Source: an uncultured Candidatus Saccharibacteria bacterium
GTDB lineage: Bacteria > Patescibacteriota > Minisyncoccia > 2-02-FULL-40-12 > GWA2-44-9
DNA length: 45,428 nt
Direction: 5' to 3'
Assembly: GCA_964429675.1 (NCBI GenBank)
Contig: CAYSDF010000001.1
Span: forward strand, 1-45,428
A program made the position numbers and the translations under genes. This document shows, piece after piece, positions 12,041-45,428 of this stretch; position 1 is the first letter of the stretch, and each line of letters opens with the position of its first letter. A model generated the notes under the pieces. It did no database searches and was not told where the DNA came from. It saw only the letters and a list, made by a program, of their open reading frames with translations.

Positions 12041-12047
12041 GAGACGT

Positions 12048-12536: not shown

Positions 12537-13384
12537 TGATAGCGACTAATTATTTTAAAAACAAGCCTCCTGTAGGAGCGATTATTGATTACGGGCATTC
12601 TTTATCTAAAGGGCTAAATGCGTGCTGGTTGATGAATGAAGGCGCAGGGAATACTATTAAGGACTTGATTAATCCTGCCAGTAATGGGAAATTTACCAAC
12701 TTTGCTGGGAATTCAGGGTGGAATAATAATGGTAAATTCGGAGAATGTGTAAGGATTCAAAACAGCACTAATTTTATTTCCTGTGGAACAAGGGATGTGG
12801 TTAAGCTCTCTTCTCCGATGACGATTAGTACTTGGGTTTATCCTAATAGTAAAGGCGGTGGCGGGTTAGCAAGAATCTTTTTTAAACAAGGCACTTCAAG
12901 TTCGCTCGGATTTCATTTTCAATTTGAGAGTGATGGCGTGGCGAATACATTCAGCTTGAGCATCGATGGTACCGCAACTACTGCCTCGGAAACGAATGGA
13001 TGTATTGTTTTTGGAGTATGGCAGCATTTACTAGGGACATGGGATGGAGGTACAGCCGGGAATGGGATTAGGCTTTATTACAATGGTTTAGAAAGCACTT
13101 ATGTCGGCAGGTTCGACGGTTCTGGTCAGGGGAATTTTTCAGGAGGGCTGAATCATATTGGTAATCGTGGTGATTTGGGTAGAGGAGTGGATGGGTCAAT
13201 AGATAATGTGATGATTTGGAACCGTGTTCTTAGCGCACAGGAAATATACAGTTTATACGTTAATCCATATTCAATGTTTTACAGTAATTATCTTACACAA
13301 TTCAGGAATTTAGGGATATTCAGGAAGACTTTATCTTCCATAGGAACCAGAACCGGGACAAGACAATCTCAGGAGTGGAACTAA
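12536..13384 (+). CDS. LamG / concanavalin-like lectin-fold protein (putative receptor-binding)
   Basis: 282 aa from the ATG overlapping the upstream stop (TAATG). Contains LNACWLMNEGAGNTIKDL and a C-terminal GSIDNVMIWNRVLSAQEIYSLY, as in Laminin_G_3-type domains. Confidence 0.6.
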   Translation: MIATNYFKNKPPVGAIIDYGHSLSKGLNACWLMNEGAGNTIKDLINPASNGKFTNFAGNSGWNNNGKFGECVRIQNSTNFISCGTRDVVKLSSPMTISTWVYPNSKGGGGLARIFFKQGTSSSLGFHFQFESDGVANTFSLSIDGTATTASETNGCIVFGVWQHLLGTWDGGTAGNGIRLYYNGLESTYVGRFDGSGQGNFSGGLNHIGNRGDLGRGVDGSIDNVMIWNRVLSAQEIYSLYVNPYSMFYSNYLTQFRNLGIFRKTLSSIGTRTGTRQSQEWN

Positions 13385-14410
13385 ATGGCTCTCTTAAAAC
13401 AAAGCACAGTCAGAGTTCGTTCTTTTAAAATGATAGATTCTTCAGACCATATCTCAAAGAAAACAAGTCTCACATGTACGGTGAATATCTCAAAGAATGG
13501 AGCTGGGTTTGGCGCAGCAGCGGGTTCGGTCGCAGAGATAGCGAACGGCTGGTACAGCGTGACCTTAACGGCGGCGGATACAGGGACTCTCGGAGACTTG
13601 GCTTTTTATATCACCGCCTCCGGTGCGGATGATACGGATTTCGTAGACCAAGTCGTCGCCTTTGACCCACAGGGATTGATTGCGGCTAATGTTATTCAGT
13701 ATGTCAGCGGGACAGCTTCGACGAATGTGGCTGGTATCCCGAAAGTAGATATTGTCGACGTCAGTGGTGTGGCGGTTTCAGCGACAACGGCACAGCTTGG
13801 TGTCAATGTTGTCAACTGGAACAACAGTGCCGTATCGGCTCCGAATATTGCCGGGGTTCCAAAGGTAGATATTGTGGATATCGGTGGGGCGGCTCTTTCT
13901 ACGAGTATTGCCCAAGTAGGAGTCAATGTTATTCAGTATGCTTCAGGTACAGCCTCTACCAATATCGCCGGAATTCCTAAAGTGGATTTCGTAGATATCG
14001 GAGGAGTGGCCCTCAATACTTCTCTTGCTCAACTTGGGGTTAATGTCGTTCAGTATGCCTCTGGGACAACTTCTACTAACGTTGCTGGAACGCCAAAGGT
14101 AGATTTGGTTTATACAAACGGAACTTCTCCTACGGTGCAGATAAAGAAAAATGCCGCTTACGATAATTTCACTTTTCCGATGATAGATTCCAGTGACCAC
14201 ATTAGTCTTAAAACTGGGTTGACGGTATCTGGGACGATTTCAAAGGACGGAGGTACCTTTGGGGCCTTGACGAATTCCGTGGCGGAGTTAGCCAGCGGAG
14301 TCTACAAAGTGAATCTGACGGCAAATGAATTGAATGCTAAGGACATTATGTTAAAGTTTACCGCTTCTGGAGGAGATACGAGGATAATCAAATTCGTAAC
14401 TCAAACTTAA
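13385..14410 (+). CDS. fibre-like protein with internal tandem repeats and duplicated end domains (341 aa)
   Basis: About 3.6 repeats of 39-40 aa (VIQY.SGTASTN.AGIPKVD.VD.GG.AL...AQ.GVN). The N- and C-terminal domains both carry MIDSSDHIS.KT.L. Confidence 0.6.
   Translation: MALLKQSTVRVRSFKMIDSSDHISKKTSLTCTVNISKNGAGFGAAAGSVAEIANGWYSVTLTAADTGTLGDLAFYITASGADDTDFVDQVVAFDPQGLIAANVIQYVSGTASTNVAGIPKVDIVDVSGVAVSATTAQLGVNVVNWNNSAVSAPNIAGVPKVDIVDIGGAALSTSIAQVGVNVIQYASGTASTNIAGIPKVDFVDIGGVALNTSLAQLGVNVVQYASGTTSTNVAGTPKVDLVYTNGTSPTVQIKKNAAYDNFTFPMIDSSDHISLKTGLTVSGTISKDGGTFGALTNSVAELASGVYKVNLTANELNAKDIMLKFTASGGDTRIIKFVTQT
13691..14110 (+). repeat. about 117-120 bp tandem coding repeats (about 3.6 copies)
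   Basis: Seen in the translated ORF 13385..14410. Boundaries are approximate. Confidence 0.7.
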
Positions 14411-14411
14411 A

Positions 14412-14663
14412 ATGTGGGATTTTTCTTCAACACTTTATCAAGCTACTTTTTTTAATATATTTCATGGGGTTGGGAATGTCTTTGATTTATCGAGTTCTGG
14501 AAGCGGTGGGTTAGGTGGAACAACCGGATTTTATCTTTTACTGATGGGTGTAGGCGGAGGAGCTAATGCAGTCGGTGGTGGAGGAGGAGATGCTGGGGCG
14601 TTAGGAGGAATAGGCGGTGATGCGTTGGGTGGTGTGGCTGGAGATGCTTTAGGAGGCGTATGA
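14412..14663 (+). CDS. Gly-rich small protein (83 aa)
   Basis: Starts 1 nt after the upstream stop. ATGA overlap with the next gene. C-terminal GGDA(L/G)GG repeats. Confidence 0.45.
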   Translation: MWDFSSTLYQATFFNIFHGVGNVFDLSSSGSGGLGGTTGFYLLLMGVGGGANAVGGGGGDAGALGGIGGDALGGVAGDALGGV

Positions 14664-16228
14664 TAAAAAAAATATTCTGGATTATTTCAATGCTTTTGAT
14701 TCCAACGGTATGTTGGGCGGTAACGAGAATCATCGACTTAAGTCAAATCACTCCGACGAATGACGACATTACTTACTGTGCCGATGGCGGAGCAACGGAT
14801 AGGAAATGCCAAGTAGGGGATATTTCTAAACTCTCAGGTTGGTCTAGGTCTAGCACGTATAGTCTCTTAAATACTCCCACAGATTACATCGGGATTGGGA
14901 CTTCGACACCTCAGGCTTATGTACATATTTACAATACAGACCCTATTGACCTTTTCAGAATAGATGACCAAGGCAGTGATACCACCCCTGTTATTGTTTC
15001 GCAAGATGGGCATGTTGGGATAGGTACAACGGCACCGAGCGGAGCTCTGGATGTTAGAGGAGCTGAAGTTAGAATCTGGACAGGCGCAGGGACAGATACG
15101 AATGCAGGTAATCCCGGAGAACTTTATGTGGAAGGAGACTTGGAGGTTGATGGGACGATCTACGGTGTAGCGGCTACATATACGGGTGATGTGACCGTGC
15201 CAACTGAAGTATATGATGCTTCTGGATGGGATGGTGATTTAACAGTCCCCACAAAGGATGCAGTAAGGGACAAGATTGAGACTTTAGGAGCCGTGACTAG
15301 CGGGTTTGTTGATGATGGAACAATCATCCGTTTAAATACCTCAACGGATACTGTGGGGTTAGGAACAACGACTTCTACTCCGAGACTGACTTTAGTGGGG
15401 TTAGGAACGACTTCCGCTACGAATTCTATGGTAATCACGGATTCAGCTTTATCAGAGAAATTGAGATTCGATGATTCTGGGCAGATGGGGATTGGGACTA
15501 CAGTGCCAAGAGGAAAACTTGACGTTGCGGGTACGGCGTATTTCGGGACGTCTGGTGCGGGGACTGTCTCAGGAGGGGCGAATCTAGCTATAAGCGGTGA
15601 TGGAGGGACAACGACGCATATGACCGTAAAAAGCACAGGACTAGTGGGGATTGGTTCAACGAATCCAATCGAGAAATTGGATGTGGCTGGGACTATAATT
15701 TCTTCCGGAGCAAGTAATGGAGTTAATTTTGGTGACGGGACTGTCTATGTTTATTCGACGGCAGCAGCCAATGGCAACTTGACTTTCGGGTCTGGGGACA
15801 ACGACAGAATGACTGTTAATACCATCGGTGATGTTGGAATCGGCTCGACTAATCCGACAGCTGCTCTGGAAATAGCTATTCCCACTGGTTCTAATTACGG
15901 ATTTTTGTTAAAAGGGAATTCTGGGGTAAATGGCGGGAATGCGGATTTCGAGTTGGATACCGCCAATGGCGCAGGGCAATGGGATTTAGCGGCAGACCAG
16001 CAAAGCAGCTCGAGGTTTGATATTTATGACCGGGTCAGCAATAAGACTCCGTTTAAAATAAATGTGGGAGCAGCCTCTAGTTCTTTTGTGATTTCGGCTG
16101 CAGGAGAAGTTTCTATGCAAGCGGTCAGTTCTGACGGGACAGGAAAAGTGGTATGTATAAAATCAGACGGGAATCTGGGAACTTGCGGAGCAGGGACTAT
16201 CGGGACTTCGACATGCACATGCAACTAA
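14660..16228 (+). CDS. tail-fibre-like protein with a Sec-type signal peptide (522 aa)
   Basis: N-terminus is MIKKIFWIISMLLIPTVCWA. At least six (I/V/M)G(I/L)G(T/S)T.P......L.(V/I) fibre repeats. Cys-rich C-terminus VVCIKSDGNLGTCG..TSTCTCN. Confidence 0.6.
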   Translation: MIKKIFWIISMLLIPTVCWAVTRIIDLSQITPTNDDITYCADGGATDRKCQVGDISKLSGWSRSSTYSLLNTPTDYIGIGTSTPQAYVHIYNTDPIDLFRIDDQGSDTTPVIVSQDGHVGIGTTAPSGALDVRGAEVRIWTGAGTDTNAGNPGELYVEGDLEVDGTIYGVAATYTGDVTVPTEVYDASGWDGDLTVPTKDAVRDKIETLGAVTSGFVDDGTIIRLNTSTDTVGLGTTTSTPRLTLVGLGTTSATNSMVITDSALSEKLRFDDSGQMGIGTTVPRGKLDVAGTAYFGTSGAGTVSGGANLAISGDGGTTTHMTVKSTGLVGIGSTNPIEKLDVAGTIISSGASNGVNFGDGTVYVYSTAAANGNLTFGSGDNDRMTVNTIGDVGIGSTNPTAALEIAIPTGSNYGFLLKGNSGVNGGNADFELDTANGAGQWDLAADQQSSSRFDIYDRVSNKTPFKINVGAASSSFVISAAGEVSMQAVSSDGTGKVVCIKSDGNLGTCGAGTIGTSTCTCN

Positions 16229-18648
16229 AAAAAATATTCCTTACAATCGTTTTATTGATGATAACAACTCCTTCTTGGGCGAGCACATGGTACCTGAGGA
16301 CCGACGGCGGAGCTTATGGTACAACATCAACGACCTGTAATGGTCAAACAGATGCAGCCTTTACTGGTAGTAACGGGCCCAACTGTGCTGTGAATAGCTG
16401 GGTTTATCTTTTGAGGCATTATTCTGACAACACCACTTTGATAGGGACGACTCGAATTGTATCTGGAGATACGGTCATTGTAGGGAATTCCGTGGCCTCA
16501 CCCGGAGCCTTCAGAGTTGGATATGATTCCACAAATATCTGGGCTTCTTGTAATGCGGCTTTCCCGGAAAATTGTCGATTGGAAAAGATTCCCAATGGAA
16601 CACCAGCTAATCCAACGAAAATTTATGGCAGAGGGTATGATACCGGATGCCCCGGATATCCAAATAATATGGCCCAAATTTGGGGAGGGATGAACGTAAG
16701 TCAGGTTTTAAATATTGGCAGTGATACGACTTTAAAATGCCTTGAGATTACAGACCACAGCGGAAGTGTTTATCGTAGGACGAATGGTGTCGGAAGAATA
16801 GACAATGACCCTACCCAAGATTTGATTAAAGTCAGTTCTAACGTAGAGGTAAGTTTGCTGGCCCAAACTGGTTTATTAATTAGTTATGCCGGTGGAGTTA
16901 CCCTTGACCATCTTTATATTCACGGTCTTGGAGATAGGTGTGTGAAAGCATTTGGGTTAAGCGGAACAACGAATGTGACTGATGTAAGAATGGAAGGCTG
17001 TGCTATGTCTGGGTGGGAAGCTGATGATGGGCCACTTTCCCATGACGGCACCCCATATACTGGTACCGTTAATTGGACTCGGGTTCAGTTACGTTATATA
17101 GGATGCGGTGAAAGATATTTAGCTACACCGGGAGGTGCAGCAGCGAACACTCCCCATGATTGTTTTGGTCAAAAGCAAGGTGGGTATGGTGACGGCATCG
17201 CTTTTGATGGCGACTCTGGGAACTGGAACTTTGATAATTGCGATATTTCTTTTAATATGTCTGACGGTATTGATATTACATACAGCAACAATGGTACAGC
17301 ATATATCCGCCGGCTTAAATGCCAAGGCAATGTAGGGGCTTGTTATAAGTCACTTATGCCGTTTTCTCAAATTGAAAATTCCATGCTTTTGGGGAATTGC
17401 GGTTGGTGGTATACCAATCCTTATGCCTTTGGAGATATTAATGCTCCGGGGCGGTCAGGGTCTAATTGTAACCATGATGGACAGTGTCAAGCTAATGAGA
17501 ATTTTACAAATTGCAGTGCAGATTGTCTTAATGAAGACTTTTGTCGGCCAACGCAACCTACTGATGTCAATATGTATGCTCAAACAAATAGAGTTCTAAA
17601 TGTTTACAATTCTACTTTGACCGGGAACGGAGACACCATTATTAGTGCGCTTAACAATAATGGTGGTGACTGCGGGACTGGTTCGGCGGTAACTTATATA
17701 AACAATGTCTTCTATGGCGGGGCTGACCATAATGAGGCTGGAGCTGACCAATCTATAGCCTATTATGCAGAATGTTCTTTGGGTAGTTTACCTGTCGTCA
17801 CTCAAAGGAACAATGTTTGTTATAACGGAAAATCCGATGCTACTAATTGTTCCGGTTCCGGCAGCGCCATCACCAATCCAAATTTAGTCGGGCCTATTCA
17901 GAACGCTTATCAGGCTTATTTCTCTGGGGCCGATTATATTCCCAACTTTTACCCTACAGCAAATTCAAGCAACCTGATTAATCGGGCAGATACGACAATA
18001 ACACTGACTGGCGGTAGTGCGGATATCAATGGCTCTCCTCGTGGAGCTTCGTGGGATATAGGCGCAGTTGAATTCGGCGGTACCCCAGTTGGATGTACGG
18101 CTACGGTCATAAGTAATTGCGATTTGAGTGCAGTATCCAGCGGAGGGACAAGTGGAACCTGCCATAGCGGGTACACCGGGACATGCACTTATTCCTGCGC
18201 TGGCGGGGTCTGGAGCAGCATTAACAACAGCTGTACTATCAATACCCCTCCGCCTTCTTGTAGTGCTACAACCATCGGCAACTGTGTTTTACCTTTAACC
18301 AACAGTGGCAGTTCAGCGGGTAGTTGCTCAGCCGGGTATTCTGGGACATGTACGTATTCCTGTGCAACCGGGGTTTGGAATTTCGTTTCCAACTCCTGTA
18401 CGATTACTCAGGTACCTTCTTGTAATGCGCAGACCATCAATAACTGCGACTTGCCTTTGACAGCGGATGGAGTTTCAGCGGGAACGTGTTCGACTGGTTA
18501 TACAGGCTCTTGTAGTTACAACTGTTCAAATCAGGTCTGGAGTCAGCTTAATAACTCCTGTGCGCTTCCTGTTAGTCCGACCACAGCGGCGAATGAAACA
18601 ATAAGTGGCACAGTCAACTTCTCGGGATTCGTGAAAGTAGGGCCATAA
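16219..18648 (+). CDS. right-handed beta-helix (polysaccharide depolymerase-like) protein with a signal peptide and three C-terminal Cys-rich repeats
   Basis: 809 aa from MQLKKIFLTIVLLMITTPSWAS. Beta-helix-type motifs include DGIDITYSNNG, NNVFYGG and SWDIGAVEF. The ORF-track start at 16153 overlaps the preceding gene. Confidence 0.55.
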   Translation: MQLKKIFLTIVLLMITTPSWASTWYLRTDGGAYGTTSTTCNGQTDAAFTGSNGPNCAVNSWVYLLRHYSDNTTLIGTTRIVSGDTVIVGNSVASPGAFRVGYDSTNIWASCNAAFPENCRLEKIPNGTPANPTKIYGRGYDTGCPGYPNNMAQIWGGMNVSQVLNIGSDTTLKCLEITDHSGSVYRRTNGVGRIDNDPTQDLIKVSSNVEVSLLAQTGLLISYAGGVTLDHLYIHGLGDRCVKAFGLSGTTNVTDVRMEGCAMSGWEADDGPLSHDGTPYTGTVNWTRVQLRYIGCGERYLATPGGAAANTPHDCFGQKQGGYGDGIAFDGDSGNWNFDNCDISFNMSDGIDITYSNNGTAYIRRLKCQGNVGACYKSLMPFSQIENSMLLGNCGWWYTNPYAFGDINAPGRSGSNCNHDGQCQANENFTNCSADCLNEDFCRPTQPTDVNMYAQTNRVLNVYNSTLTGNGDTIISALNNNGGDCGTGSAVTYINNVFYGGADHNEAGADQSIAYYAECSLGSLPVVTQRNNVCYNGKSDATNCSGSGSAITNPNLVGPIQNAYQAYFSGADYIPNFYPTANSSNLINRADTTITLTGGSADINGSPRGASWDIGAVEFGGTPVGCTATVISNCDLSAVSSGGTSGTCHSGYTGTCTYSCAGGVWSSINNSCTINTPPPSCSATTIGNCVLPLTNSGSSAGSCSAGYSGTCTYSCATGVWNFVSNSCTITQVPSCNAQTINNCDLPLTADGVSAGTCSTGYTGSCSYNCSNQVWSQLNNSCALPVSPTTAANETISGTVNFSGFVKVGP
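18094..18561 (+). repeat. three tandem ~54-aa Cys-rich modules (C..I.NC.L.....G.SAG.C..GY(T/S)G.C.Y.C..(G/Q)VW....NSC)
   Basis: Read from the translated ORF. Each module has six conserved Cys and one conserved Trp. Confidence 0.7.
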
Positions 18649-24716: not shown

Positions 24717-25522
24717 GTGTCGTAGTCAAACCATCTACGTTCTCGGCGGGGGCGACCATTATCGCTGCAGAACACAATTCTAATTTCGATACATTGTACG
24801 CCGACTACAATGGGAATATTACTAATTCCAATGTGGCGGCTTCCGCAGCGATAGCTTATTCTAAACTGAATCTGGCGACCAGTATCGTCAATGCTGATGT
24901 CGCTACCAATGCAGCTATTGTAGCGTCAAAACTGGTTCTTACCTCACCGGGCCCCATCGGAAGTGTAGCTTCGAATACGGGGGCCTTTACGAGTTGTTTT
25001 ATAGCGACGTTGACTTCAGGTACCAGTAGTCAGGGAAGTATACTTTATGATAACGGAACCTCGATAGTTAAGTTGGTAGGGGGAACCGCTGGGTGGTTAC
25101 TGACTACTCAAGGGCAAGCAGCGAATCCAAATTGGACAGCTCCACTACTTTATAGTGCCGGGACGTTATCGGAAGTCAATGCTTCGACCGAAAGAACACA
25201 TAGCGGAGATACGAATCTAACGAAGATGAAAGAAATCTCTCCATTGCCACGTTCAGGAACAGTGAGTACCTCCTATGACATGAATAACGTAGCCAGTTCG
25301 AATGGACAGGCTCAATTATACATCAATGATATCGCCGTAGGGACGCTCAATACGAATTCGAGCAACACCTATGTGACGTATACTGACACCGGGATTACCG
25401 CTGTTTATGGAGATAAGTTTCAGGTATATGCAAAGACAGTGGGAGGAGATACGGTGAAGGTGAAGAATTTTAAGATATTAGTGACGAATCCTTCCCAACC
25501 ACAGGAGTTGAGCGGATTATGA
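24713..25522 (+). CDS. fibre- or collar-like protein, paralogue B (269 aa)
   Basis: N-terminus KPSTFSAGATIIAAEHNSNFDTLYADYNGNITNSNVAASAAIAYSKL. ATGA overlaps on both sides. Confidence 0.55.
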   Translation: MSVVVKPSTFSAGATIIAAEHNSNFDTLYADYNGNITNSNVAASAAIAYSKLNLATSIVNADVATNAAIVASKLVLTSPGPIGSVASNTGAFTSCFIATLTSGTSSQGSILYDNGTSIVKLVGGTAGWLLTTQGQAANPNWTAPLLYSAGTLSEVNASTERTHSGDTNLTKMKEISPLPRSGTVSTSYDMNNVASSNGQAQLYINDIAVGTLNTNSSNTYVTYTDTGITAVYGDKFQVYAKTVGGDTVKVKNFKILVTNPSQPQELSGL

Positions 25523-25887
25523 GTACCGTAGACCAATTAGTCGAGATTTACCAAAAGCAAGAAGAATGGCACACGAATAAACTCTCTCCTGAAGATTCGA
25601 GAGAATATTTTATGGAGGTCATTGACAAGGGGGAAATTATTACTTGTCTTTCAAAAGAAAAAGAAGTATTGGGATATGTGGAATTCTATCAGATAGATAC
25701 GCACTCGGGGAAGATGGGAGTTGCTTTTAACGGATGGATACATCCTGATTATAGACGAGGGTTTGTTTTTAAAGAATTGTTTAAAGAGTTTATTAAAAGA
25801 AATTCCAACTGTCTATTTTTTGCGGAACACGCTTTGAGGAAGCAGACCAAACCAATCAAGGTATTTAAAAATAGGGAGGTGATTTAA
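25519..25887 (+). CDS. hypothetical protein (122 aa), weakly GNAT-like
   Basis: GYVEFYQ...GWIHPDYRRGFVFKELFKEFIK resembles acetyltransferase motif A. This resemblance is weak. Confidence 0.4.
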   Translation: MSTVDQLVEIYQKQEEWHTNKLSPEDSREYFMEVIDKGEIITCLSKEKEVLGYVEFYQIDTHSGKMGVAFNGWIHPDYRRGFVFKELFKEFIKRNSNCLFFAEHALRKQTKPIKVFKNREVI

Positions 25888-29374: not shown

Positions 29375-30271
29375 TTATTCCCAAATACCTTTTTCACCTT
29401 GACTTTTAGTTAATAAATCCTTATCCTCAAACGGCTCAAATGTATCGTTCCTTTGTTTTACGACAAACTTCATGCGTGACAGGTTAATCGGGCCCTGAGC
29501 AAGGAGTGTCTGAATCTTTTTAGGGTCATAGGTTGTCCATGATTTCTCAAGGACGCCCCTATCGTAATTATACCCCTTTGCGAATGGTCGTTGCAAGAAC
29601 TCACTTTGGTTCCGGCTTTCTCCGATTAAAAATGATTTTCCAAGATGGTCAATGTCAATATAACAATCACCCCCTCCGAAGATTTCAACCGTCCCTCCAT
29701 CCGCATAGGCTCTCATCACGATATCATTCTCGTACTGCCCGCAGACGTATCTTCGGTCAATACCACCTAATTTATCCAGATACTCTCTGCTCATCATACC
29801 TAATGGAGCCATGAGAGGGGTGTCGGGCTGAAATCCAAAAAAACAGTGATGACTCATATTGAATAACTGTCCTTCAGGGAGATTGTACCCGCTTTCTTTG
29901 GTCTGAATAGAGAGAATGAGTTTTTCGTTATTCTTTGACTTCCAGTGAGTGTAGGCTTTATCCAAGACACCGTTAGGGAATTCGCAGTCGTCAGCAACCC
30001 AGACCACAACTGCTCCGGTGCAATGCCTACGGGCGATTTCGTAACACTGAGCCGGTTTTATGTTTTCGGTTATTATGTATTTCAAAGGTTGCCCATTTTT
30101 AAATTGAAATACTATAGGGCCAAGAACTTTTTCAAAAGCATTCCCCGCAAAGACCACCTCTATTTCGCTCACATTTGACTTGAGAGAGGCGAAGAACGAT
30201 TCCCATAGCTTTGGTCTGACTGCGGAGGCAAAGAGTGAAATTTGAGGCCTTCTAGGCGTTTCTGAGGTCAT
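29375..30271 (-). CDS. GT-A-like glycosyltransferase, type I copy a (298 aa)
   Basis: ISLFASAVRPKLW, IKPAQCYEIARRHCTG and VWVADDCEF (DxD-like). Paralogue of 33143..33967. Confidence 0.6.
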   Translation of the reverse strand: MTSETPRRPQISLFASAVRPKLWESFFASLKSNVSEIEVVFAGNAFEKVLGPIVFQFKNGQPLKYIITENIKPAQCYEIARRHCTGAVVVWVADDCEFPNGVLDKAYTHWKSKNNEKLILSIQTKESGYNLPEGQLFNMSHHCFFGFQPDTPLMAPLGMMSREYLDKLGGIDRRYVCGQYENDIVMRAYADGGTVEIFGGGDCYIDIDHLGKSFLIGESRNQSEFLQRPFAKGYNYDRGVLEKSWTTYDPKKIQTLLAQGPINLSRMKFVVKQRNDTFEPFEDKDLLTKSQGEKGIWE

Positions 30272-30473
30272 TTTTATCTCCTACTGTCACATCTTGGTTC
30301 ATACTGAGGTTTTTTGGCAAAACTGATTCTAAAACCATTTTATATGTATCAAATGCTACATTGTGAATAATAAATTGGCCATTTTCTTTATGTATAATAG
30401 GCCCGACTTTACTTCTTTCGATACCATCCCATACTTCGTTAATAATTTGTGAAATCTGTGAGGCTTTAAGCAT
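30252..30473 (-). CDS. hypothetical protein (73 aa)
   Basis: Start taken at MLKASQ, which minimises overlap with the upstream GT. Lies between two GT genes. Confidence 0.4.
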   Translation of the reverse strand: MLKASQISQIINEVWDGIERSKVGPIIHKENGQFIIHNVAFDTYKMVLESVLPKNLSMNQDVTVGDKNDLRNA

Positions 30474-31254
30474 TCTGGGGCTCCTTTCCGAAGCGTCTTT
30501 CCCAACGACTCGGACATTCTTTCCAGTTATTAAGATCAAGATTGATTCTCTGCTTGCTTTTTGCGTAGCTATATATCATCTTGAAAATATACGTATCATG
30601 GTAGGTCTGGGCATTATGTATTGGCCCGTGGTCTCCGGTCGTACCGGGCATATGCCCGCACTTAAACATCATTGATTCTTGAAGGATGAACTTGACTCCC
30701 ATGTTATAGAAGCGGATAGACAAGTCATTATAAGCCATTGGACAGACCTCGAAAGACTTGGCATCCCAACCCCCAGTTTCAATTAACAACTGACGTGGAA
30801 TCAATCCTTCCATTAGCATCAAACAATCACGTGGGATGAACTCGCATCTACTGCCTTCATGAGTGTAAATATAATAATACTGAATATCAGCCATTTGCGG
30901 GTTTTCGTGGAAGTTAATCCCTTCATAGTACTTACCCACAACAACGGTTTTATAATCTTTATCCTTTAGCAACTCTTTAGCTATATCAAGTGACTTTGGC
31001 AAAAAGATACCATCATCGGCAGCCCATGTTACGTAATCTCCGGTCGCATGAGTTAAAGCGATTTGCTGGGCCCGGACAGGACTTCCCCAGTCTTCGATAA
31101 ACTTGACGTTTTCCTTTCCTTCCAGACTACGGGGCGGTGGATAGGGGCCGCAGAAGATTATTTCCCATGTTCCGCTAAAAGATTCTGCCACTGAGTCATA
31201 AAGCTGTTTCCAGTTGCCCGGGCGAATCCCGGGGACTAAGACTGATAATTCCAC
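30466..31254 (-). CDS. GT-A-like glycosyltransferase, type II copy a (262 aa)
   Basis: GTG start after AGGAGGTG (TAGTG overlap). LSVLVPGIRPGNW, TWAADDG, C-terminal NWKECPSRWERRFG. Paralogue of 32391..33143. Confidence 0.6.
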   Translation of the reverse strand: MELSVLVPGIRPGNWKQLYDSVAESFSGTWEIIFCGPYPPPRSLEGKENVKFIEDWGSPVRAQQIALTHATGDYVTWAADDGIFLPKSLDIAKELLKDKDYKTVVVGKYYEGINFHENPQMADIQYYYIYTHEGSRCEFIPRDCLMLMEGLIPRQLLIETGGWDAKSFEVCPMAYNDLSIRFYNMGVKFILQESMMFKCGHMPGTTGDHGPIHNAQTYHDTYIFKMIYSYAKSKQRINLDLNNWKECPSRWERRFGKEPQNA

Positions 31255-32412
31255 TAATCACCTCCTATGATTTCAAAATGCGGTAAAGGGAAGACCAATT
31301 TACCTCCCTGTTTAAGAAACTTTTTTTCTCGTTTGATAATGTGTTCCTTGAAATGCCACGGAAGAACAAAGAAATAGTCTGGTTCCATGGAACGGGCTAT
31401 TTCTTCAGAGACGATAAGAATATTTGTCCCCGGAGTATAACAGCCCCACTTTTCTTTATTCACATCTGCGATAAGAGGCAGTTCTTTTCTGGTTAATCCG
31501 CAGTATTGCAGAAGTACATTGCCTTTTGTGGAAGCACCATAACCCAAAACTAGCAATTTATTTAAGCTGGCCTCTAGTGTAAAAAACCGCCAGATATCTT
31601 GCCGATGCTGTTTAATTTGTGTTTCAAATTTTTTGAAAGGTGACACGGAAACTTCCTCCATTGATTTCGTTATAGTTGATATCGATAATTTTCAGTTCAG
31701 CGGCTTCGGCAATGAATTCCATCTGCGGTATATCGTAGTAGCATTTATGTTCGTGACAGATGGTATCGTAGGAATTATTTTCCAACATTCTAGGAAGATA
31801 GCTTTGTTCGGTAACCCAGATACCGCCTTTTCCCAGCATATCTTGTATTCGATAAGCTAAGGTAAATGGGCTATCCACATCATAGAACATCGCAATCGAA
31901 GTGATAACTTTAACTTGTTTCGTAAGAATCCTGTCAAGATAGAGAGAAGGGAAAAAATCGTTGACGAAGATAATTTCTTCTCCATAAAAAGAACTGAATT
32001 TAGAGATTGGGTCAATACCTATCTTGGTGCAGGGAGTTTTGTAGGATTTTAAAAGTGTAGCATCGTTGCTGCCGATATCTAGAACGATATCATCTTTGTT
32101 TAGTTTCACCCGTTTCTTGATTTCTGCGACAATCCCTTCGATATGTTTGACCATAGAGGCATTGAGATTTGATTGGTATCCGTAATGGTCTCCCCAGAGA
32201 ATATCTGAGGTGACGCTATGTCTTAATTGAACCAACTCACACTTTTTACACTGAACCAATTCCAGCGGTGCTTTGAGTAATTTCTTATCCGGCTTCTTTG
32301 GGAAATATCCAGTGAGTGCCATTTCGCCTAAATTTAAAACAGGTTTAAGTTTTGAACTACAGCACAGACGACAACGAAAGATTTCTCGAATCAACCGAAT
32401 CTCCTTGCCCAT
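31254..32412 (-). pseudogene. NDP-hexose C-methyltransferase (TylC3-like), split into two ORFs (31624..32412 and 31254..31661) at an A6 run
   Basis: N-terminal part has FRCRLCCSSKL..LNLGEMALTGYF (zinc ribbon), DIGSNDATLL, IGIDP, ICHEH and NGGSFRV. C-terminal part has LGYGASTKGNVLL, DVN..K.G.Y.PG and PDYFFVLPWHF. The frames join if A6 (31629..31634) is read as A5. Confidence 0.75.
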
Positions 32413-33143
32413 TTTTCTGGCGATTTTTTCCAGTTATCGAGAGGGATTTTAATTCTGTCCTCGCAGCTTGGTTGGTTATAGATTTTTTTGTAAATCTCCA
32501 TATCCACAAAGAATCCATCGTGAATAGGTTTATGGTCGCCACTCTCTCCGGGCATCCACTCACACTTCAAAACAACTTCGTCGCTCAAGATAGTCTTTGC
32601 TCCCCAGAATTGAAGTCGTATTCCCAAATCCAGTTCTCCGACAGCGATGGTCTCAAACTGGCAGTCCCAGCCCCCGATATCGTTAAGCAATTTAGTGGGA
32701 TAAATTCCAAAATTAATCAGCTTGAAGTTATGCGGGATGTAGTGGGCGTGGGTCTGGTTATGATAGCGGAGATTGTAGAAATTAGGGTCGTTCATATTCT
32801 GAAAAGCCTGATGACTCTGGTTGATAGAAGAGTTCCATTCGATGAATTTTAAGTTGACGACGGTATCTTCTTTGGCGAGCGCCATCGCTCTATCCATAGC
32901 TCCGGGAAGATAGGTTGCATCATCAACGGCCCGGTGGATATACTCTCCTCTGGCCTCAATAAGCCCTAACTGCTGGCAGCGAATAGGTGTCCCGTAATCT
33001 TTAATGAGTTTCCCTACGTCCATAAACGCAATACTCGGAGAGATGGTGATTAATTCCATTTCACCGGTGTAGCTTTTTTTAAAAGAATCGTAAAAGTTCT
33101 TTAAGTATCCGGGGCGAATCGTTGGTAAGATAACTGAGAGCAT
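32391..33143 (-). CDS. GT-A-like glycosyltransferase, type II copy b (250 aa)
   Basis: MLSVILPTIRPGYL, RAVDDATY, C-terminal NWKKSPEKWARRFG. The ATG overlaps the upstream stop (TAATG); an alternative GTG lies at 33152. Confidence 0.6.
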   Translation of the reverse strand: MLSVILPTIRPGYLKNFYDSFKKSYTGEMELITISPSIAFMDVGKLIKDYGTPIRCQQLGLIEARGEYIHRAVDDATYLPGAMDRAMALAKEDTVVNLKFIEWNSSINQSHQAFQNMNDPNFYNLRYHNQTHAHYIPHNFKLINFGIYPTKLLNDIGGWDCQFETIAVGELDLGIRLQFWGAKTILSDEVVLKCEWMPGESGDHKPIHDGFFVDMEIYKKIYNQPSCEDRIKIPLDNWKKSPEKWARRFG

Positions 33144-33967
33144 TATTCCCACCTATCTCTAATTGACTGGCTTGTTTCGGTGATGTTCTCGTCCTCGAAC
33201 GGTTCGAACTTATCTCTTCTCTGGAGAGTGACTTCTCGGTTACTGATTGGGTAATAGACATTCAAAGTCCCTTGATGATTCAGAACGTATATCCCCCGCT
33301 CGAAGTCTTTATACCCTTCGATGACCCAAGAGTTTTCACAGATTTCACTGTCTTGATTGACCCCAGACCAGTCGTTGGTATATTCCCCGGATTTGTGGGT
33401 GTGGTCGATTTTTATTTCTACTTCTTCAAACTTGATGACTTTGCCTCCCGCTGCTAGAAGTCTCATACAGATATCGTACTCCCACTTTCCGTAAAGATAT
33501 CTTCTGTCAATCCCGTGCATTTTCTCAAGAGTAAATCGATTCATAAATCCGATTTGAGCCATCTGCGGAGTATTGAGGTTACGGGCAAAGAATCGATGGT
33601 CGTTTAAATCGTTATTCTTACACTGAGGGTCAAGGGTCTTTATGGCAAGGATAGTAGTATCGTTTTGTTTTGTGGCAAATTCGTATATTTTATCTAGAGC
33701 ATTTGGCGGAAACTCACAGTCATCGCTTATCCAACCGATAATATCCCCAGTACACTTTCTTCTGGCAATCTCATAACACTGAGCCGGTTTGATGTTCTTA
33801 GTCTGGATATATTTTAGCATTGGATACTTTTCGAGAATCTCCTGAATGACCACTGGTTCAATGTACCCAGAGAATACGACTTCATAGGGAATCGTATTTA
33901 ATTTAAGTGAATCGAGTAACCTTTCCCATAAGAACGGACGGACTGCACTGGCAAACAGACTTATCAT
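33143..33967 (-). CDS. GT-A-like glycosyltransferase, type I copy b (274 aa)
   Basis: MISLFASAVRPFLW, IKPAQCYEIARRKCTG and WISDDCEF. ATGA overlap with the SDR gene, with AAGGAG upstream. Confidence 0.6.
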   Translation of the reverse strand: MISLFASAVRPFLWERLLDSLKLNTIPYEVVFSGYIEPVVIQEILEKYPMLKYIQTKNIKPAQCYEIARRKCTGDIIGWISDDCEFPPNALDKIYEFATKQNDTTILAIKTLDPQCKNNDLNDHRFFARNLNTPQMAQIGFMNRFTLEKMHGIDRRYLYGKWEYDICMRLLAAGGKVIKFEEVEIKIDHTHKSGEYTNDWSGVNQDSEICENSWVIEGYKDFERGIYVLNHQGTLNVYYPISNREVTLQRRDKFEPFEDENITETSQSIRDRWE

Positions 33968-34917
33968 TTTAACTCCTTTCGGTAGGTATCTAAAAGCCAT
34001 TGAACGCTTTCTTCAATGGTATATTTAGGCTTCCATTCTGAAATGGTATCGAATTTCGTCGTATCGGGGACTTGGCGGGTGACATCGACCGGTCTTAAAA
34101 GAGTGGTATCTTGAGTGGAAATAATGGGGACTTTGGCAAATGATTTTATTAGTTCAAGGAATTCTCCGACTTCCATAATGGTTGCTCCCCCGATGTTGTA
34201 GTTTTCTCCGATGACACATCTTTCGCAAGCAACCCAGTAAGCCGCCATAGCATCACGAACATCGATGATGTTACGAATAGAATTAAGATTTCCGTGTTTG
34301 AGGACTCCCCCCTGTCTTTCGATTTGGACAATCTGCCAAGCGAACGCCGAAGCGAATAAATCACGGCGGCGAGGGTTAATATAAGCAAACATCCTTGTAG
34401 TAATAACACGTAGGCCCCAACTTTGATGATACGCATAAGCTAAACTCTCCTGTGCTAATTTACTCACGCTATAAGGGTTGACCGGCTTCAAAGGATGCTC
34501 TTCGGTTATTGGAAGAATCACCGGATTACCATAGACCTCTGAGGTGGAACACATCTGGACGAGGGTCTCCGGACAGACCATTCGAATAGCTTCGAGAAGA
34601 TTCGCTGTTCCGATGATGTTGTTGTTGATGACGGCTAAAGGTGTCTCAAAGCATTTCTTGACGTTAGCAAAAGAAGCCAAATGAAAGATTCTATCGGGTA
34701 CAATGATTTTCAAGGCCCGTATCACTGAAGATAAATCAAGTAAGTCCGCTTCTAAGATATGGACTTTATCTTTGACCGCCTCGATGTTCGCCAGCGTGCC
34801 CGCACTGTGCCACCGGTGAAGTCCCCAGACCTCGTAGTCGAGATGGTTCTCAAGAATGTATTCGGCCAAGTAACTTCCGCCTGACCCCGTGATTCCGGTG
34901 ATGAGACATTTTTTCAT
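33964..34917 (-). CDS. NAD(P)-dependent NDP-sugar 4,6-dehydratase/epimerase (extended SDR, GDP-mannose-4,6-dehydratase-like)
   Basis: LITGITGSGGSYLAEYILE (Rossmann GxxGxxG), STSEVYG and the YSVSK (YxxxK) catalytic motif. 317 aa. Confidence 0.8.
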   Translation of the reverse strand: MKKCLITGITGSGGSYLAEYILENHLDYEVWGLHRWHSAGTLANIEAVKDKVHILEADLLDLSSVIRALKIIVPDRIFHLASFANVKKCFETPLAVINNNIIGTANLLEAIRMVCPETLVQMCSTSEVYGNPVILPITEEHPLKPVNPYSVSKLAQESLAYAYHQSWGLRVITTRMFAYINPRRRDLFASAFAWQIVQIERQGGVLKHGNLNSIRNIIDVRDAMAAYWVACERCVIGENYNIGGATIMEVGEFLELIKSFAKVPIISTQDTTLLRPVDVTRQVPDTTKFDTISEWKPKYTIEESVQWLLDTYRKELK

Positions 34918-35282
34918 TATTTCTCCTTTGTTTCGTGATATTGTAAAAAAAATGGAGTGTAGGTCATTCGAGAAAATCCTAAATCATCAGTGGTGCCGTG
35001 CCACTGTACAAGGGCGGTAGGATTAAAGGAACGCTTTTTCTTCTTCTGGTACCATCTTCGGTCAGCGGCATTTTTTTTATCTTTATTCTCTTTACGCCAA
35101 TTTCGGTTATAGGCGAGCTTCTTTTTATATCTCCGTTCTTCCCGGATTTTCTGGTCTTCTTTGTGGCAGAGGATACAGTAACTAGCCATCATTGGAGTCC
35201 GGTTCCCTAGTCTGCGGAGTTTAAGTCTGGTATATTTAGGATATTCGGTTGTTCCGCACTTAGAGCAGGGACGACGAACCAT
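34917..35282 (-). CDS. basic zinc-ribbon protein (121 aa)
   Basis: CSKCG...CILCH followed by a Lys/Arg-rich tract. TAATG overlap with the SDR gene. Confidence 0.5.
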   Translation of the reverse strand: MVRRPCSKCGTTEYPKYTRLKLRRLGNRTPMMASYCILCHKEDQKIREERRYKKKLAYNRNWRKENKDKKNAADRRWYQKKKKRSFNPTALVQWHGTTDDLGFSRMTYTPFFLQYHETKEK

Positions 35283-35889
35283 ACTTTATCTTTCTTAAAT
35301 CTTTTTCAAATTGAAGGCCTATCCACATGGCAAAAGCTGAACCGTCTTTTTTAAATTGTTCTCTGGAATTTGTTTTTTGATACACAGCATCAGCGAGAGA
35401 GTTATCAGTTATCATTGTATCGTAGTTAGTGAATGGTTGTTTAATAAAATGTTTGTGTTCGATAATCACATTCTTGAAGTAATGCAATTTTCCCAAGTTA
35501 TCACCGATACACATCCAAACGTTATCCCCGTAAAGAAAGTCTACCGCCGGAAGCTGCAACCATCCTAAAGCTCTCGGTAAATCCCCATTAATTACGGAAA
35601 TTGTGCATAATCCTTTTTTTAGGAATCCATCGTTGGCATAGGCTATGCCGTCACTTTTAAGAGTTTCATCCCATCCTTTTGTATGGTAAATGAAATCATC
35701 ATTGGCGATGTGGTACCATCCGTAGTCCGGATTTTCCCGGAAGACCTTATTGATGATTTCCGTGGTCGTTCCGGGAGTGGTATCTACGATTAAATCCGAA
35801 CAAGTCTGGGTTTCTTCCCAGCTTTTCTTCATTTCTTCTAGACGTTTCGGGCGAATAGAAGGACAAATGGTTAAGACTCTATCTTTCAA
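35260..35889 (-). CDS. GT-A-like glycosyltransferase, type III (209 aa)
   Basis: LTICPSIRPKRL and HIANDDF share the N-terminal x-P-S-I-R-P and DD motifs with the other six GT-like ORFs. Confidence 0.5.
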   Translation of the reverse strand: MKDRVLTICPSIRPKRLEEMKKSWEETQTCSDLIVDTTPGTTTEIINKVFRENPDYGWYHIANDDFIYHTKGWDETLKSDGIAYANDGFLKKGLCTISVINGDLPRALGWLQLPAVDFLYGDNVWMCIGDNLGKLHYFKNVIIEHKHFIKQPFTNYDTMITDNSLADAVYQKTNSREQFKKDGSAFAMWIGLQFEKDLRKIKYGSSSLL

Positions 35890-36469
35890 ATTTTCTCCGC
35901 ATAAAAAATAGACCAGTTCCTAACAACGCTATAGTAGCCGGTTCCGGGTTATGTCCTACATATTTAAAATCCGATAAGTTGCCGATGGCTTGATGTTCTC
36001 CTCTTTCATAGGCCAACCAATAATTCCCAGCTGGTAACGTAACCCACATACTGGTGGATGGAAAATCATCTTGATAGGTAATTAAGTCAGGCGTGATTGG
36101 AAAAGACACATTAGCTTTAGTTATCTCTTCGTTCGCCTTTGGCAATTCATCTCCTGAGTAGACAAAGAAATTGAAATCAAATAAATCTTCAGACTGGTTG
36201 TCAGAAAAGGCCTCAACATCGACAAGTACCCTATCAATAAAAATAGGCTCCTCAGCCAAAAATTGTTTAGCGAATCCTATCGTACCATTCCCCGTGGGGC
36301 CGTTCACATACCCAGTCCAATCTGAATAATGCCATGTCCCGCCTTCTACTCCGCTATTTAACCACGGGTTTTCGTAGATTGCGTCTACACCTGTAAAATT
36401 AAATGGTACTATCATTGCTTGTGCTTCTGTACAAAACAATAAAACCAGAATTATAATTAAGTATTTCAT
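35879..36469 (-). CDS. secreted PEP-CTERM domain protein (196 aa)
   Basis: Signal peptide MKYLIIILVLLFCTEAQA. C-terminus NPEPATIALLGTGLFFMRRKFER shows the PEP motif, a hydrophobic helix and a basic tail. Confidence 0.8.
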   Translation of the reverse strand: MKYLIIILVLLFCTEAQAMIVPFNFTGVDAIYENPWLNSGVEGGTWHYSDWTGYVNGPTGNGTIGFAKQFLAEEPIFIDRVLVDVEAFSDNQSEDLFDFNFFVYSGDELPKANEEITKANVSFPITPDLITYQDDFPSTSMWVTLPAGNYWLAYERGEHQAIGNLSDFKYVGHNPEPATIALLGTGLFFMRRKFER

Positions 36470-36627
36470 TTTACTCCTCTTTCTGGTCGTTTTATCCCCT
36501 CAATACATGGTTTAGTTTTCCCTGAATCATCAAACTTATCCGTGAAGACGTACATTGGGAGGTTCTCGCAGAGTCTGAAGGTTGCTAACATTATCATAAT
36601 GAATAATTCGATTTTTAGAATTTTCAT
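36466..36627 (-). CDS. small protein with a hydrophobic N-terminus (53 aa, below cutoff)
   Basis: Hand translation gives MKILKIELFIMIMLATFRLCENLPMYVFTDKFDDSGKTKPCIEGIKRPERGVK. GGAGAAG RBS. ATGA overlaps on both sides. Confidence 0.4.
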   Translation of the reverse strand: MKILKIELFIMIMLATFRLCENLPMYVFTDKFDDSGKTKPCIEGIKRPERGVK

Positions 36628-37280: not shown

Positions 37281-37622
37281 TTAAACATTTTTCTCCCCTT
37301 CCTCTCGTGCTTGCAGGGCGTGGGCGTAGGCTTTTTTGCAAGCGTCTATGGCTGCGTTCCATCCAACATTTTGTTGATGAATAAAATTATCTTGATATGG
37401 AAATTTAGACGGCTTATGTTTCTCCGGCCACTCCACGCAATCCGGCTGGGCGGGGGTTCTAGTATTCCATGCCTTAATCGCTTCTGCTTTTGTATCAAAA
37501 TCATGTTGGGCTAAACAACCACATGGAATAGTATTAGTACAAGAGACAAACCATCCTTCCCATTTTTTAAGCTCAGCTTTCGACCCGCAGAGTGGACACG
37601 GTTTAAGTCGCTCGTTCGTCAT
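37281..37622 (-). CDS. Lar-family (restriction-alleviation-like) zinc-ribbon protein with a C-terminal extension (113 aa)
   Basis: LKPCPLCGSKAEL...CTN..CG......KAEAIKAWNTR matches the Lar-family pattern (CPFCG ... AI.AWN.R). Confidence 0.45.
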   Translation of the reverse strand: MTNERLKPCPLCGSKAELKKWEGWFVSCTNTIPCGCLAQHDFDTKAEAIKAWNTRTPAQPDCVEWPEKHKPSKFPYQDNFIHQQNVGWNAAIDACKKAYAHALQAREEGEKNV

Positions 37623-39477: not shown

Positions 39478-39660
39478 TTAATCACTCACGCACCCGTCCT
39501 TGTCGTAGACGTCGAGGCCGTCAGGCCATATCACTAACTCTCTTTTCTCTAGCCGGCAGGTGCAGGGCCAGAAATTATGAGAGTTCCAGTGCCAGTTTTT
39601 AGAGTCACACCAGACATTAAGTTCTTTCCGGGAGCCCTGATAGATTTTACGTAGATTCAT
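39478..39660 (-). CDS. hypothetical Trp/Cys-rich protein (60 aa)
   Basis: Start at MNLRKIY, with ATGA overlap on the NinG stop. Confidence 0.45.
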   Translation of the reverse strand: MNLRKIYQGSRKELNVWCDSKNWHWNSHNFWPCTCRLEKRELVIWPDGLDVYDKDGCVSD

Positions 39661-40040
39661 AGTGCCTCTATTTTTTCTTTGTACTCTTCGATAAGCTCTT
39701 GATAGTCTTCTTTTTTCCACTGTTCGATTTTCCCAAGTAGGGCGTGGAGCTCTTCCAGAGTTTCTGTGCCATAAACTTCACGGATTCTCGCACCGTAGAC
39801 CGCAACATTTCCTCGGAGCCAGATGTTGCAGCGGTAACACTGACAGTGATTATTCCGTTCGTGGAAATATAACGGCAGAGGACAGATTGCTCGTTGATAG
39901 TAATGTCCGCATTGAGTAAATCGGATTTCATTTTCTGCACCACAGGTGAAACACACGCCTTTATCTCTTTTTCTGATATATTCACTGAACACCGTCCATA
40001 ACTTGCGTTTGTACCACGCTAGGGTTTTTTCTTTCTTCAC
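39657..40040 (-). CDS. ninG: NinG/Rap-family recombination endonuclease-like protein
   Basis: FSEYIRKRDKGVCFTCG....QCGHYY.......LYFHERNNHCQCYRCN...RGN...Y follows the lambda NinG pattern (FIRERD..C.SCG..AGHY..RF.ERN.H.QC..CN..GN..Y). Confidence 0.7.
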   Translation of the reverse strand: MKKEKTLAWYKRKLWTVFSEYIRKRDKGVCFTCGAENEIRFTQCGHYYQRAICPLPLYFHERNNHCQCYRCNIWLRGNVAVYGARIREVYGTETLEELHALLGKIEQWKKEDYQELIEEYKEKIEAL

Positions 40041-45090: not shown

Positions 45091-45428
45091 TCCGCCCAAA
45101 GAAAATCAATCAGTCATTACAGACCAGCCTTTAAAGAATCCGATCAAAAAACCTCGCCGGCTCTCCTTGCGCCAAGAAAGATTCGCCCAAGAATATATTA
45201 AGAACAATGGTGACGCCACAAAGGCAGCAGAAATAGTTTATGCCCGGCCAAAGAATAACTCCAATAGGGCAATAGCAAGTGAAAACTTAACAAAGCCAGC
45301 CATTGTTAATCGTATATCTCAAATACTCAATGATAAGGGGTTAGACCTAGATAGTTTAAGCCTAGATTTAAGGGATAAGAAGAATAATGCATGTAGACCA
45401 GTGGTAGTAGGTAAGCAAATAATAGACT
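45083..45428 (+). CDS. terS: terminase small subunit, 5' portion (continues at 1..264)
   Basis: ATG at 45083 overlaps the upstream stop. The ORF is open to the window end. See the feature at 1..264. Confidence 0.75.
   Translation, partial: MTNPPKENQSVITDQPLKNPIKKPRRLSLRQERFAQEYIKNNGDATKAAEIVYARPKNNSNRAIASENLTKPAIVNRISQILNDKGLDLDSLSLDLRDKKNNACRPVVVGKQIID
45374..45428. repeat. 55-bp terminal overlap identical to 1..55 (circular-contig closure)
   Basis: Both ends read GATAAGAAGAATAATGCATGTAGACCAGTGGTAGTAGGTAAGCAAATAATAGACT. Confidence 0.95.

Follow-up and report, generated by a model that had tools for sequence, protein, structure and literature searches.

A predicted PEP-CTERM protein encoded by an uncultured phage and its probable reliance on host sorting

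PEP-CTERM/exosortase sorting is a widespread and poorly understood form of surface display in environmental diderm bacteria, and it has been linked to exopolysaccharide and floc formation. Here we describe a gene of this kind on a phage genome, contig CAYSDF010000001.1 (45,428 nucleotides; hereafter the window, by which the whole stretch is meant). The gene lies on the minus strand at 35879..36469 (ATG at 36467-36469, TAG stop at 35879-35881, as read from the sequence and the list of open reading frames, ORFs) and encodes a protein of 196 amino acids (aa) with a predicted signal peptide, a predicted beta-sandwich domain and a C-terminal tail of the PEP-CTERM type. A first-pass annotation of the window had singled out this ORF, and the sequence quoted there is an exact match in the ORF list, the strand being minus. 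We judge it probable, with moderate confidence, that the ORF is a phage-borne accessory gene whose product, a small cell-envelope protein, depends on the PEP-CTERM/exosortase sorting of the host. A substrate carried by a phage would show that phages tap the exosortase pathway, as is known for lipoprotein sorting, and the small, well-folded single-domain cargo is suited to tests of exosortase processing. The sequence of the gene also hints at the host of this uncultured phage lineage, namely a diderm with an exosortase, the attributable cellular relatives of the protein being from Omnitrophota and Planctomycetales.

The protein, its sorting signals and its family

The C-terminus of the 196-aa protein, NPEPATIALLGTGLFFMRRKFER, is, to judge from its sequence, a genuine PEP-CTERM sorting signal (residues 175-196; 35882..35947, minus strand), in which a Pro-Glu-Pro motif (P175-E176-P177) is followed by a hydrophobic helix, ATIALLGTGLFFM (mean hydropathy 1.8-2.15), and then by a basic tail, RRKFER; on the same grounds the protein is a member of the PEP-CTERM domain class. 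Such a tail had been claimed in the first-pass annotation, which named a scan with the TIGR02595 (PEP_CTERM) model as the check, and the scan bears the claim out: residues 175-193 match model positions 2-21 of 24 with 18.2 bits against a curated cutoff of 16 (E 0.003). The match stops at residue 193, so that 3 of the 196 residues follow it, and for the PEP-CTERM domain at large the trailing segment is shorter than 10 residues in 87% of cases, with a median of 3 (PMC1569441). At the level of full-length subfamilies no curated PEP-CTERM cutoff was reached, the scores in bits (score/cutoff) being 13.9/80 for PepA (NF033554), 17.7/100 for EDSAP-1 (NF041538), 17.5/85 for THxN (NF038125), 13.0/80 for QFxxD (NF038120) and 12.3/65 for NF038129; because no curated subfamily was matched near its cutoff, the family to which the protein belongs is an unnamed one.

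At the other end of the protein, residues 1-18 (MKYLIIILVLLFCTEAQA; 36416..36469, minus strand) form a predicted signal peptide with a signal peptidase I site after A-Q-A, a prediction that draws on hydropathy, on the conservation of A18 and on a helix at residues 2-11 of the AlphaFold model. Residues 3-14 make up the hydrophobic core (Kyte-Doolittle mean of up to 3.4 over 11 residues) and the c-region reads A-Q-A, which agrees with the signal peptide proposed in the first pass; A18 is at least 90% conserved, and a hydrophobic N-terminus is present in every full-length family member aligned. A second hydrophobic stretch, residues 178-190, falls within the C-terminal signal, and hydropathy revealed none elsewhere; judged by these heuristics, the protein has a signal peptide, and nothing from there to the tail spans the membrane. 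A lipoprotein reading was tried and rejected, there being no lipobox ([LVI][ASTVI][GAS]C), while the sole cysteine, at position 13 after L-L-F, is not conserved in the family.

Between the two signals lies the mature domain (about residues 19-172; 35954..36415, minus strand), an all-beta sandwich in the AlphaFold2 model, with no cysteine, few basic residues and 7.1% asparagine in the mature part. The model, built with the family alignment (mean pLDDT 89.4, pTM 0.83), comprises the N-terminal helix, 12 strands and a C-terminal helix at residues 177-195, so that the passenger is predicted to be a jelly-roll-like beta sandwich of about 155 residues. Its conserved motifs are GGPxxNNSxG(Y)AxQF and LxPGxYWLAxER. 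Outside the tail the passenger has no sequence match in Pfam, PHROG or PDB, and a PDB sequence-profile search matched the hydrophobic tail alone. The best PDB fold matches are generic jelly rolls, including tumour necrosis factor (TNF)-family ligands, carbohydrate-binding modules (CBM4/16/61) and the C-terminal domain of CocE; a carbohydrate-binding module label was considered for the domain and dropped, the CBM matches being generic and weak.

Searches for homologues gave very different yields. Word-indexed searches returned only the protein itself when started from the single sequence, and four proteins when started from the family profile, while an exhaustive scan with HMMER, covering 1.84 billion cluster representatives, produced 38 further matches (E 5e-22 to 4.5e-4), of which 37 are full-length relatives of about 200 aa and one is a 493-aa repeat protein with a weak local match. 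Together they make up a family without an earlier name, about 40 proteins some 200 aa long that share 25-40% identity. In the 37-sequence alignment the layout of signal peptide, domain and tail is kept in all but two truncated rows, and conservation is at least 90% at each of P175, E176 and P177; a tail that runs from PE[P/L/S] into a hydrophobic stretch and then basic residues is found in 37 of the 40 members, and 27 of the 37 relatives match TIGR02595 at E<0.01. Since the PEP motif is kept at only 25-40% identity, the tail is unlikely to be a chance feature or a mere anchor, and we take it to be a signal under selection. Three members lack the tail: L008 8678-9304, which ends ...VIAPPQQGGKKYIYQ and keeps the signal peptide and the domain, P0035, and P0031. 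Such tail-less copies may be degenerate or truncated, or they may be unsorted variants.

The family is rare among catalogued phages, being found in 0 of 50,697 GenBank phage records and, by four pattern-based scans, on one IMG/VR contig; three of these four scans, made with subgroup alignments, gave no new locus. The searches for loci used sub-alignments of the family, a scan of GTDB genomes yielding one locus and a scan of JGI metagenomes two new ones.

The phage genome and the other settings of the family

A 55-bp direct terminal repeat (at 1-55 and 45374-45428) shows the window to be a complete phage genome that closes into a circle, about 45.4 kb long and with a guanine plus cytosine (GC) content of 43.1%. 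It encodes a large terminase, a major head protein, a tail fibre and other tail proteins, a Laminin_G_3 protein, DnaB, NinG and Lar. The identical 196-aa protein was called on contigs from two further sequencing runs, the PEP-CTERM gene stands in the same gene order on a contig assembled from another run, and its composition is uniform with the rest of the phage (tetranucleotide r = 0.96 for L001 against the window). The description of the protein as phage-encoded in the first pass is thus upheld by the repeat, by the terminase, head and tail genes, by DnaB, NinG and Lar, and by the repeated gene order. The window lacks tRNA genes and matches no GenBank phage at the nucleotide level; its terminase and capsid are at most 30% identical to those of any cultured phage, with matches spread over phages of many phyla, and about 990 uncultured sequences are related to the terminase at 52-66% identity, many of them on contigs of 40-47 kb. 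No ORF in the window has five or more hydrophobic segments, so that the phage encodes no polytopic membrane protein of the exosortase kind.

Within this genome the PEP-CTERM gene is tightly packed. A Shine-Dalgarno sequence, GAGGAG (36474..36479, minus strand), lies 4 nt 5' of the ATG, the start context on the minus strand being AAGAGGAG-TAAA-ATG and the reverse complement of 36470-36489 being CGACCAGAAAGAGGAGTAAA. Upstream lies a 53-aa ORF with a hydrophobic N-terminus (36466..36627, minus strand), whose stop overlaps the ATG of the PEP-CTERM gene (ATGA), an arrangement for translational coupling; downstream, the 3' end of the PEP-CTERM gene overlaps the TTG start of a glycosyltransferase-like gene by 11 nt. 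Overlaps on both sides, together with the Shine-Dalgarno sequence, are the packing expected of a translated operon member. A promoter and terminator consensus scan at the gene found nothing above shuffled expectation. The 53-aa ORF has no Pfam or other family match, and the same gene was called on a second assembly.

Six distinct genomic contexts were resolved for the family, three phage-like (the window among them) and three cellular. One of the other phage-like contexts, L003 (49.5 kb), carries a D5-type primase (PHROG E 1e-110), a Sak4-like annealase, an HNH gene, Cpn60 and a Laminin_G_3 protein, and its copy is the closest relative of the window protein (38-39% identity); the chaperonin there, of Cpn60/GroEL type, is encoded at 11935-13578 on the minus strand. 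Another phage-like context, L007, is a 45.9-kb IMG/VR contig with tail-fibre and Cas4-like genes, on which the family gene lies on the strand opposite to both neighbours. The cellular contexts are L006 (PurD, hemerythrin, HSP20, TamB), L009/L010 (enolase, HipA, GGDEF, BrkB, CheB/CheR kinase) and L008, which is contig CAYGEE010000040 of a metagenome-assembled genome (MAG) labelled uncultured Planctomycetales, with NrfA, NapC and transporters. The L010 family member scores 30.9 bits with PF07589, and the L009/L010 enolase clusters at 90% identity with a protein that bears the name Candidatus Omnitrophota; the taxon labels of the cellular contexts rest on this one cluster name and the one MAG title. 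L008 and the window share a GC content of 43.1% and a tetranucleotide correlation of r = 0.75, a likeness that is only suggestive. No exosortase gene was found in the recovered flanks of the cellular family members. For further members no context could be had, four being on contigs of at most 1.7 kb or without a record, and P0003 and P0004 on contigs of about 1 kb.

The phage copies fall into two subgroups, with the window and L003 together and L007 grouping with Omnitrophota-type proteins, and this split in the sequences suggests more than one transfer between phages and cells. Among 18 IMG/VR terminase loci, the closer of which are 45-65% identical to the window in terminase, portal and capsid, no family member or PEP-CTERM-like ORF was found in the up to 10 kb covered on each side of the terminase gene; the upstream regions of these related phages share no similarity with the replication region of the window, the modules being mosaic. 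The gene is probably accessory, since the stretches recovered from phages with related head modules do not contain it.

Proposed role, likely host and related systems

We hypothesize that during infection the protein would be exported by the Sec route and that signal peptidase I would remove the signal peptide after AQA18. Anchored by its C-terminal helix, the protein would sit in the inner membrane and place PEP on the periplasmic side, the topology given for the PEP-CTERM class (PMC1569441), whereupon a host exosortase would cleave at PEP and pass the beta sandwich to the cell surface or the exopolysaccharide matrix. The beta-sandwich protein would there alter the surface or matrix of the infected cell, its most likely roles being to mask or occupy a phage receptor or the matrix, or to tether exopolysaccharide like PepA; masking would give superinfection exclusion, or would stop progeny from re-adsorbing to debris. 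Modification of the infected-cell surface or matrix is the role that we favour, speculatively and by analogy.

The host lineage is the probable source of the gene, or its partner in exchange, and this would point to an exosortase-bearing diderm as host, plausibly from the PVC (Planctomycetes, Verrucomicrobia, Chlamydiae) group. The two attributable cellular relatives, from Omnitrophota and Planctomycetales, belong to that group, and Planctomycetes and Verrucomicrobia are classic PEP-CTERM phyla (PMC1569441). A diderm, exosortase-bearing host had already been proposed in the first-pass annotation, and the cellular relatives fit it: the contig with TamB, the contig with the Omnitrophota-attributed enolase, and the Planctomycetales MAG.

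Compared with the known substrates of exosortase (EpsH, Xrt), the protein has the same signal peptide, the same lack of an internal membrane segment and the same end of PEP, helix and basic residues (PMC1569441), as well as a mature part low in cysteine and basic residues and high in asparagine, and a passenger without homology to named families. It differs from the usual PEP-CTERM substrates in being encoded by a phage, that is, by a carrier without an exosortase, and in its gene arrangement, since the typical PEP-CTERM gene is a single-gene unit behind a long intergenic region, whereas the window copy sits in an operon. The window genome has one PEP-CTERM copy, and PEP-CTERM genomes have a median of eight (PMC1569441).

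Among named proteins a useful comparison is PepA of Zoogloea/Aquincola (NF033554; PMC9850573), likewise a small (about 200-260 aa) secreted PEP-CTERM protein, which raises bound and lowers soluble exopolysaccharide (PMC9850573). A weak similarity to NF033554 extends beyond the tail, covering residues 91-188 (E 0.034), and 20 of the 37 family members match that model (best E 3e-8), but a score so far below the 80-bit cutoff means that the window protein is not a member. The PepA gene is chromosomal, RpoN-dependent and located beside prsT, and no floc phenotype can be read across to the window protein; PepA is nonetheless a plausible functional analogue, binding exopolysaccharide to cells.

The benefit that a phage might draw from such a gene is suggested by other parallels. 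T5 Llp and phi80/N15 Cor, which are outer-membrane lipoproteins, and Ltp of the Streptococcus thermophilus phage TP-J34 are phage proteins that ride host sorting to alter the cell surface; such phage lipoproteins use the lipobox/Lol pathway, are made in the infected or lysogenic cell rather than built into the virion, and block the receptor. Like Llp, Cor and Ltp, the window protein is a small accessory product of a phage and carries a signal of host type for export and sorting. Unlike Llp and Cor, it has LLFC with Phe at -1 and no canonical lipobox, with a PEP-CTERM signal instead, and it shows no sequence or convincing fold similarity to Llp, Cor or Ltp. By this analogy, receptor masking or exclusion would be the likeliest model of what the phage gains from the gene.

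Our literature search yielded no description of a tailed-phage PEP-CTERM gene or of this family. A PEP-CTERM-domain protein on a virus-like mobile element turned up in a single report, namely HOG10, a 'PEP-CTERM domain' protein of the IME1 virus-like elements of Dehalococcoides (bioRxiv 10.64898/2026.09.15.751708), which is similar in having a predicted signal and membrane segments; that element differs in being integrative, possibly filamentous or budding, and resident in Dehalococcoides, and the likeness is one of description only. The tailed-phage case therefore appears to be undescribed, extending known principles rather than representing a new kind of system.

Several observations weigh against the reading of the gene as an accessory one for an exosortase-sorted envelope protein. 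With the Pfam model PF07589 the tail scores 20.4 bits, 0.3 bits short of the gathering score of 20.7 (a model that recognises only about 22% of TIGR02595 instances; Haft et al., PMC1569441). We infer exosortase cleavage of this family, and likewise an exosortase in the host, from sequence; a surface-masking or matrix role is speculative, being argued by analogy, and on this point Foldseek against PDB gave nothing at E<=1e-3 (best E 2e-3, TM <=0.45). In the window the gene overlaps both neighbours and behaves as an operon member, not as an autonomous moron cassette, and no integrase was found among the ORFs scanned, several small ORFs lying outside the scan; the lack of an integrase and the placement in an operon together make classic lysogenic conversion unlikely. 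As to the accessory status, the absence of the gene from related phages is absence from a non-homologous region and not from an equivalent position, and because long contigs favour phages, the 3:3 split between phage and cell among the resolved contexts is no estimate of frequency.

Sugar-modification genes and alternative readings

That the PEP-CTERM gene lies directly upstream of glycosyltransferases, as the first member of a sugar-modifying run, was noted in the first-pass annotation and is confirmed by Pfam and PHROG matches. The overlapping glycosyltransferase-like gene (35260..35889, minus strand; 209 aa, TTG start) matches phrog_14945 'glycosyltransferase' (E 1e-21). The rest of the run (29375..35282 in the Pfam scan) is on the same strand and comprises a nucleoside diphosphate (NDP)-sugar 4,6-dehydratase/epimerase (33964-34917), family 2 glycosyltransferases (GT2s) at 33143-34000 and 30466-31254, a sub-threshold GT2 at 29375-30271, two ORFs without assignment (32391-33152 and 34917-35282), and a sugar C-methyltransferase split over two overlapping ORFs (31254-32412), of which 31624-32412 has the zinc-binding and SAM domains and 31254-31661 the C-terminal domain; the split may reflect a frameshift, mark a pseudogene or stem from faulty assembly. 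This glycan neighbourhood showed neither a GtrA/GtrB-type flippase nor a membrane glycosyltransferase. Seroconverting and glycan-modifying modules of phages include gtrABC and O-acetylases; the neighbourhood resembles these in having glycosyltransferases and enzymes that modify sugar nucleotides, a likeness that concerns the neighbours and not the PEP-CTERM protein.

Homologues of the glycosyltransferase-like gene are annotated as glycosyltransferases in Streptomyces and Arthrobacter phages, and others, at 28-31% identity, lie inside the head modules of related phages (L022 7286-7975, L023 17483-17971), between homologues of window 7463-8287 and 9266-9742. The head/tail module of the window itself holds two paralogues, 8284-8958 and 11369-12040 (both plus strand; 36% identity, E 1e-36), with the GT-A-typical 'LLLDDDH', and 8284-8958 weakly resembles the glycosyltransferase-like gene at the N-terminus, which brings the putative glycosyltransferases of the phage to roughly seven or eight in total. 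The GT-A-like paralogues and the glycan run together hint at virion glycosylation; virion glycosylation, as by actinophage glycosyltransferases, is one candidate role for such sugar genes, with DNA and the cell surface as other candidate targets.

The proximity of these genes underlies the first alternative to be weighed, already raised in the first-pass annotation, in which the protein is the acceptor of the co-encoded glycosyltransferases, that is, a phage-made surface glycoprotein (with the dehydratase, the C-methyltransferase and the glycosyltransferases supplying the glycan) delivered by exosortase. Immediate adjacency with the 11-nt overlap and the full sugar-modification run on the same strand speak for it, as does the fact that PEP-CTERM proteins are rich in Asn, Ser and Thr and that glycosylation has been proposed for them (PMC1569441; PMC9850573); the protein has, moreover, N-x-S/T sequons at residues 24, 61, 91, 120 and 164, five against 1.24 expected from shuffling (p ~0.006). 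We set the sequon excess aside as evidence of glycosylation, however, since it is post hoc, one of 40 tests, and not family-wide (the 40 proteins together have 83 sequons where 56 are expected, a surplus owed largely to the conserved NNS motif). No glycosyltransferase was found among the neighbours examined in L003, L007 and three cellular loci, so the proposed link to the glycosyltransferases is not repeated near the other phage or cellular members. The adjacent glycosyltransferase-like gene, for its part, belongs to a phage-typical family, present in head modules of related phages whose recovered stretches show no PEP-CTERM gene and common in actinophages, whose hosts lack exosortase. The two GT-A-like paralogues in the phage's own structural module point to a virion-directed or other phage-autonomous glycan role, and soluble cytoplasmic GT2-type enzymes do not directly modify a periplasmic protein. 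We therefore regard the acceptor relationship as unlikely: with no glycosyltransferase beside other family members and with homologues of the adjacent gene in head modules, the sugar genes look like a phage-autonomous function that the PEP-CTERM gene merely abuts. More doubtful still is the broader idea that the protein and the sugar genes form one system, in which a glycoprotein bearing a methylated deoxy-sugar would coat the infected cell or the matrix by way of the host exosortase; if it were true, exosortase would be a pathway hijacked by phages of PVC-group bacteria (for example Omnitrophota and Planctomycetota), and PEP-CTERM cargo genes would be a usable marker of host range for uncultured phages.

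A different alternative dispenses with exosortase altogether and takes the C-terminal segment as a membrane anchor only, the protein being a periplasm-facing exclusion (injection-blocking) protein or a lysis regulator. Small periplasmic proteins with a membrane anchor are common among the exclusion proteins of phages, a signal peptide with a C-terminal helix and a positive-inside tail would give a periplasm-facing anchored protein regardless of exosortase, and the PF07589 score is marginal. What a plain anchor leaves unexplained is the near-invariant P-E-P directly before the helix in proteins of 25-40% identity, the 27 of 37 members that match the sorting-signal model, and the typical 3-residue gap between the end of the motif and the C-terminus (PMC1569441), and we consider this alternative improbable, about as much so as the acceptor relationship. 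It is far less likely that the gene is really cellular, coming from a chimeric contig or from host DNA flanking a prophage: relatives do occur on ordinary chromosomal contigs, but the window closes on itself through its terminal repeat, the gene is internal, between the Lar/NinG/DnaB replication genes and the glycan genes, with reading frames that overlap on both sides, the same arrangement was assembled from another run, the composition is uniform (the correlation with L001 given above), and family members occur on two unrelated phage-like contigs. Equally remote, in our estimate, is a role in the virion or in adsorption, as a decoration protein or receptor-binding module rather than a cell-surface protein. 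The jelly-roll fold is one seen in many receptor-binding domains, and the best fold matches in BFVD (best E 5e-5) include the C-terminal domains of collagen-repeat tail-fibre-like proteins and other tail fibre proteins; these matches are weak (TM 0.3-0.43), however, and the predicted cleavable signal peptide and membrane-anchor tail, the position of the gene outside the structural module among early or accessory genes, and the existence of close homologues as single chromosomal genes in bacteria all tell against it. Dependence on host exosortase sorting thus remains the reading that we prefer for the PEP-CTERM protein.

Two minor observations concern other genes of the window. The ORFs 37281-37622 (minus strand), 39657-40040 (minus strand) and 25519-25887 (plus strand) encode a restriction-alleviation protein of the Lar type, a homologue of NinG and a small GNAT acetyltransferase. 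The tail-fibre-like protein at 14660-16228 (plus strand; phrog_9942) starts with the signal-peptide-like sequence MIKKIFWIISMLLIPTVCWA, which is unusual for a virion protein, and this gene and the ORF after it (16153-18648) share 28-56% identity with tail-fibre genes of L007, the IMG/VR phage that has a family member of its own.

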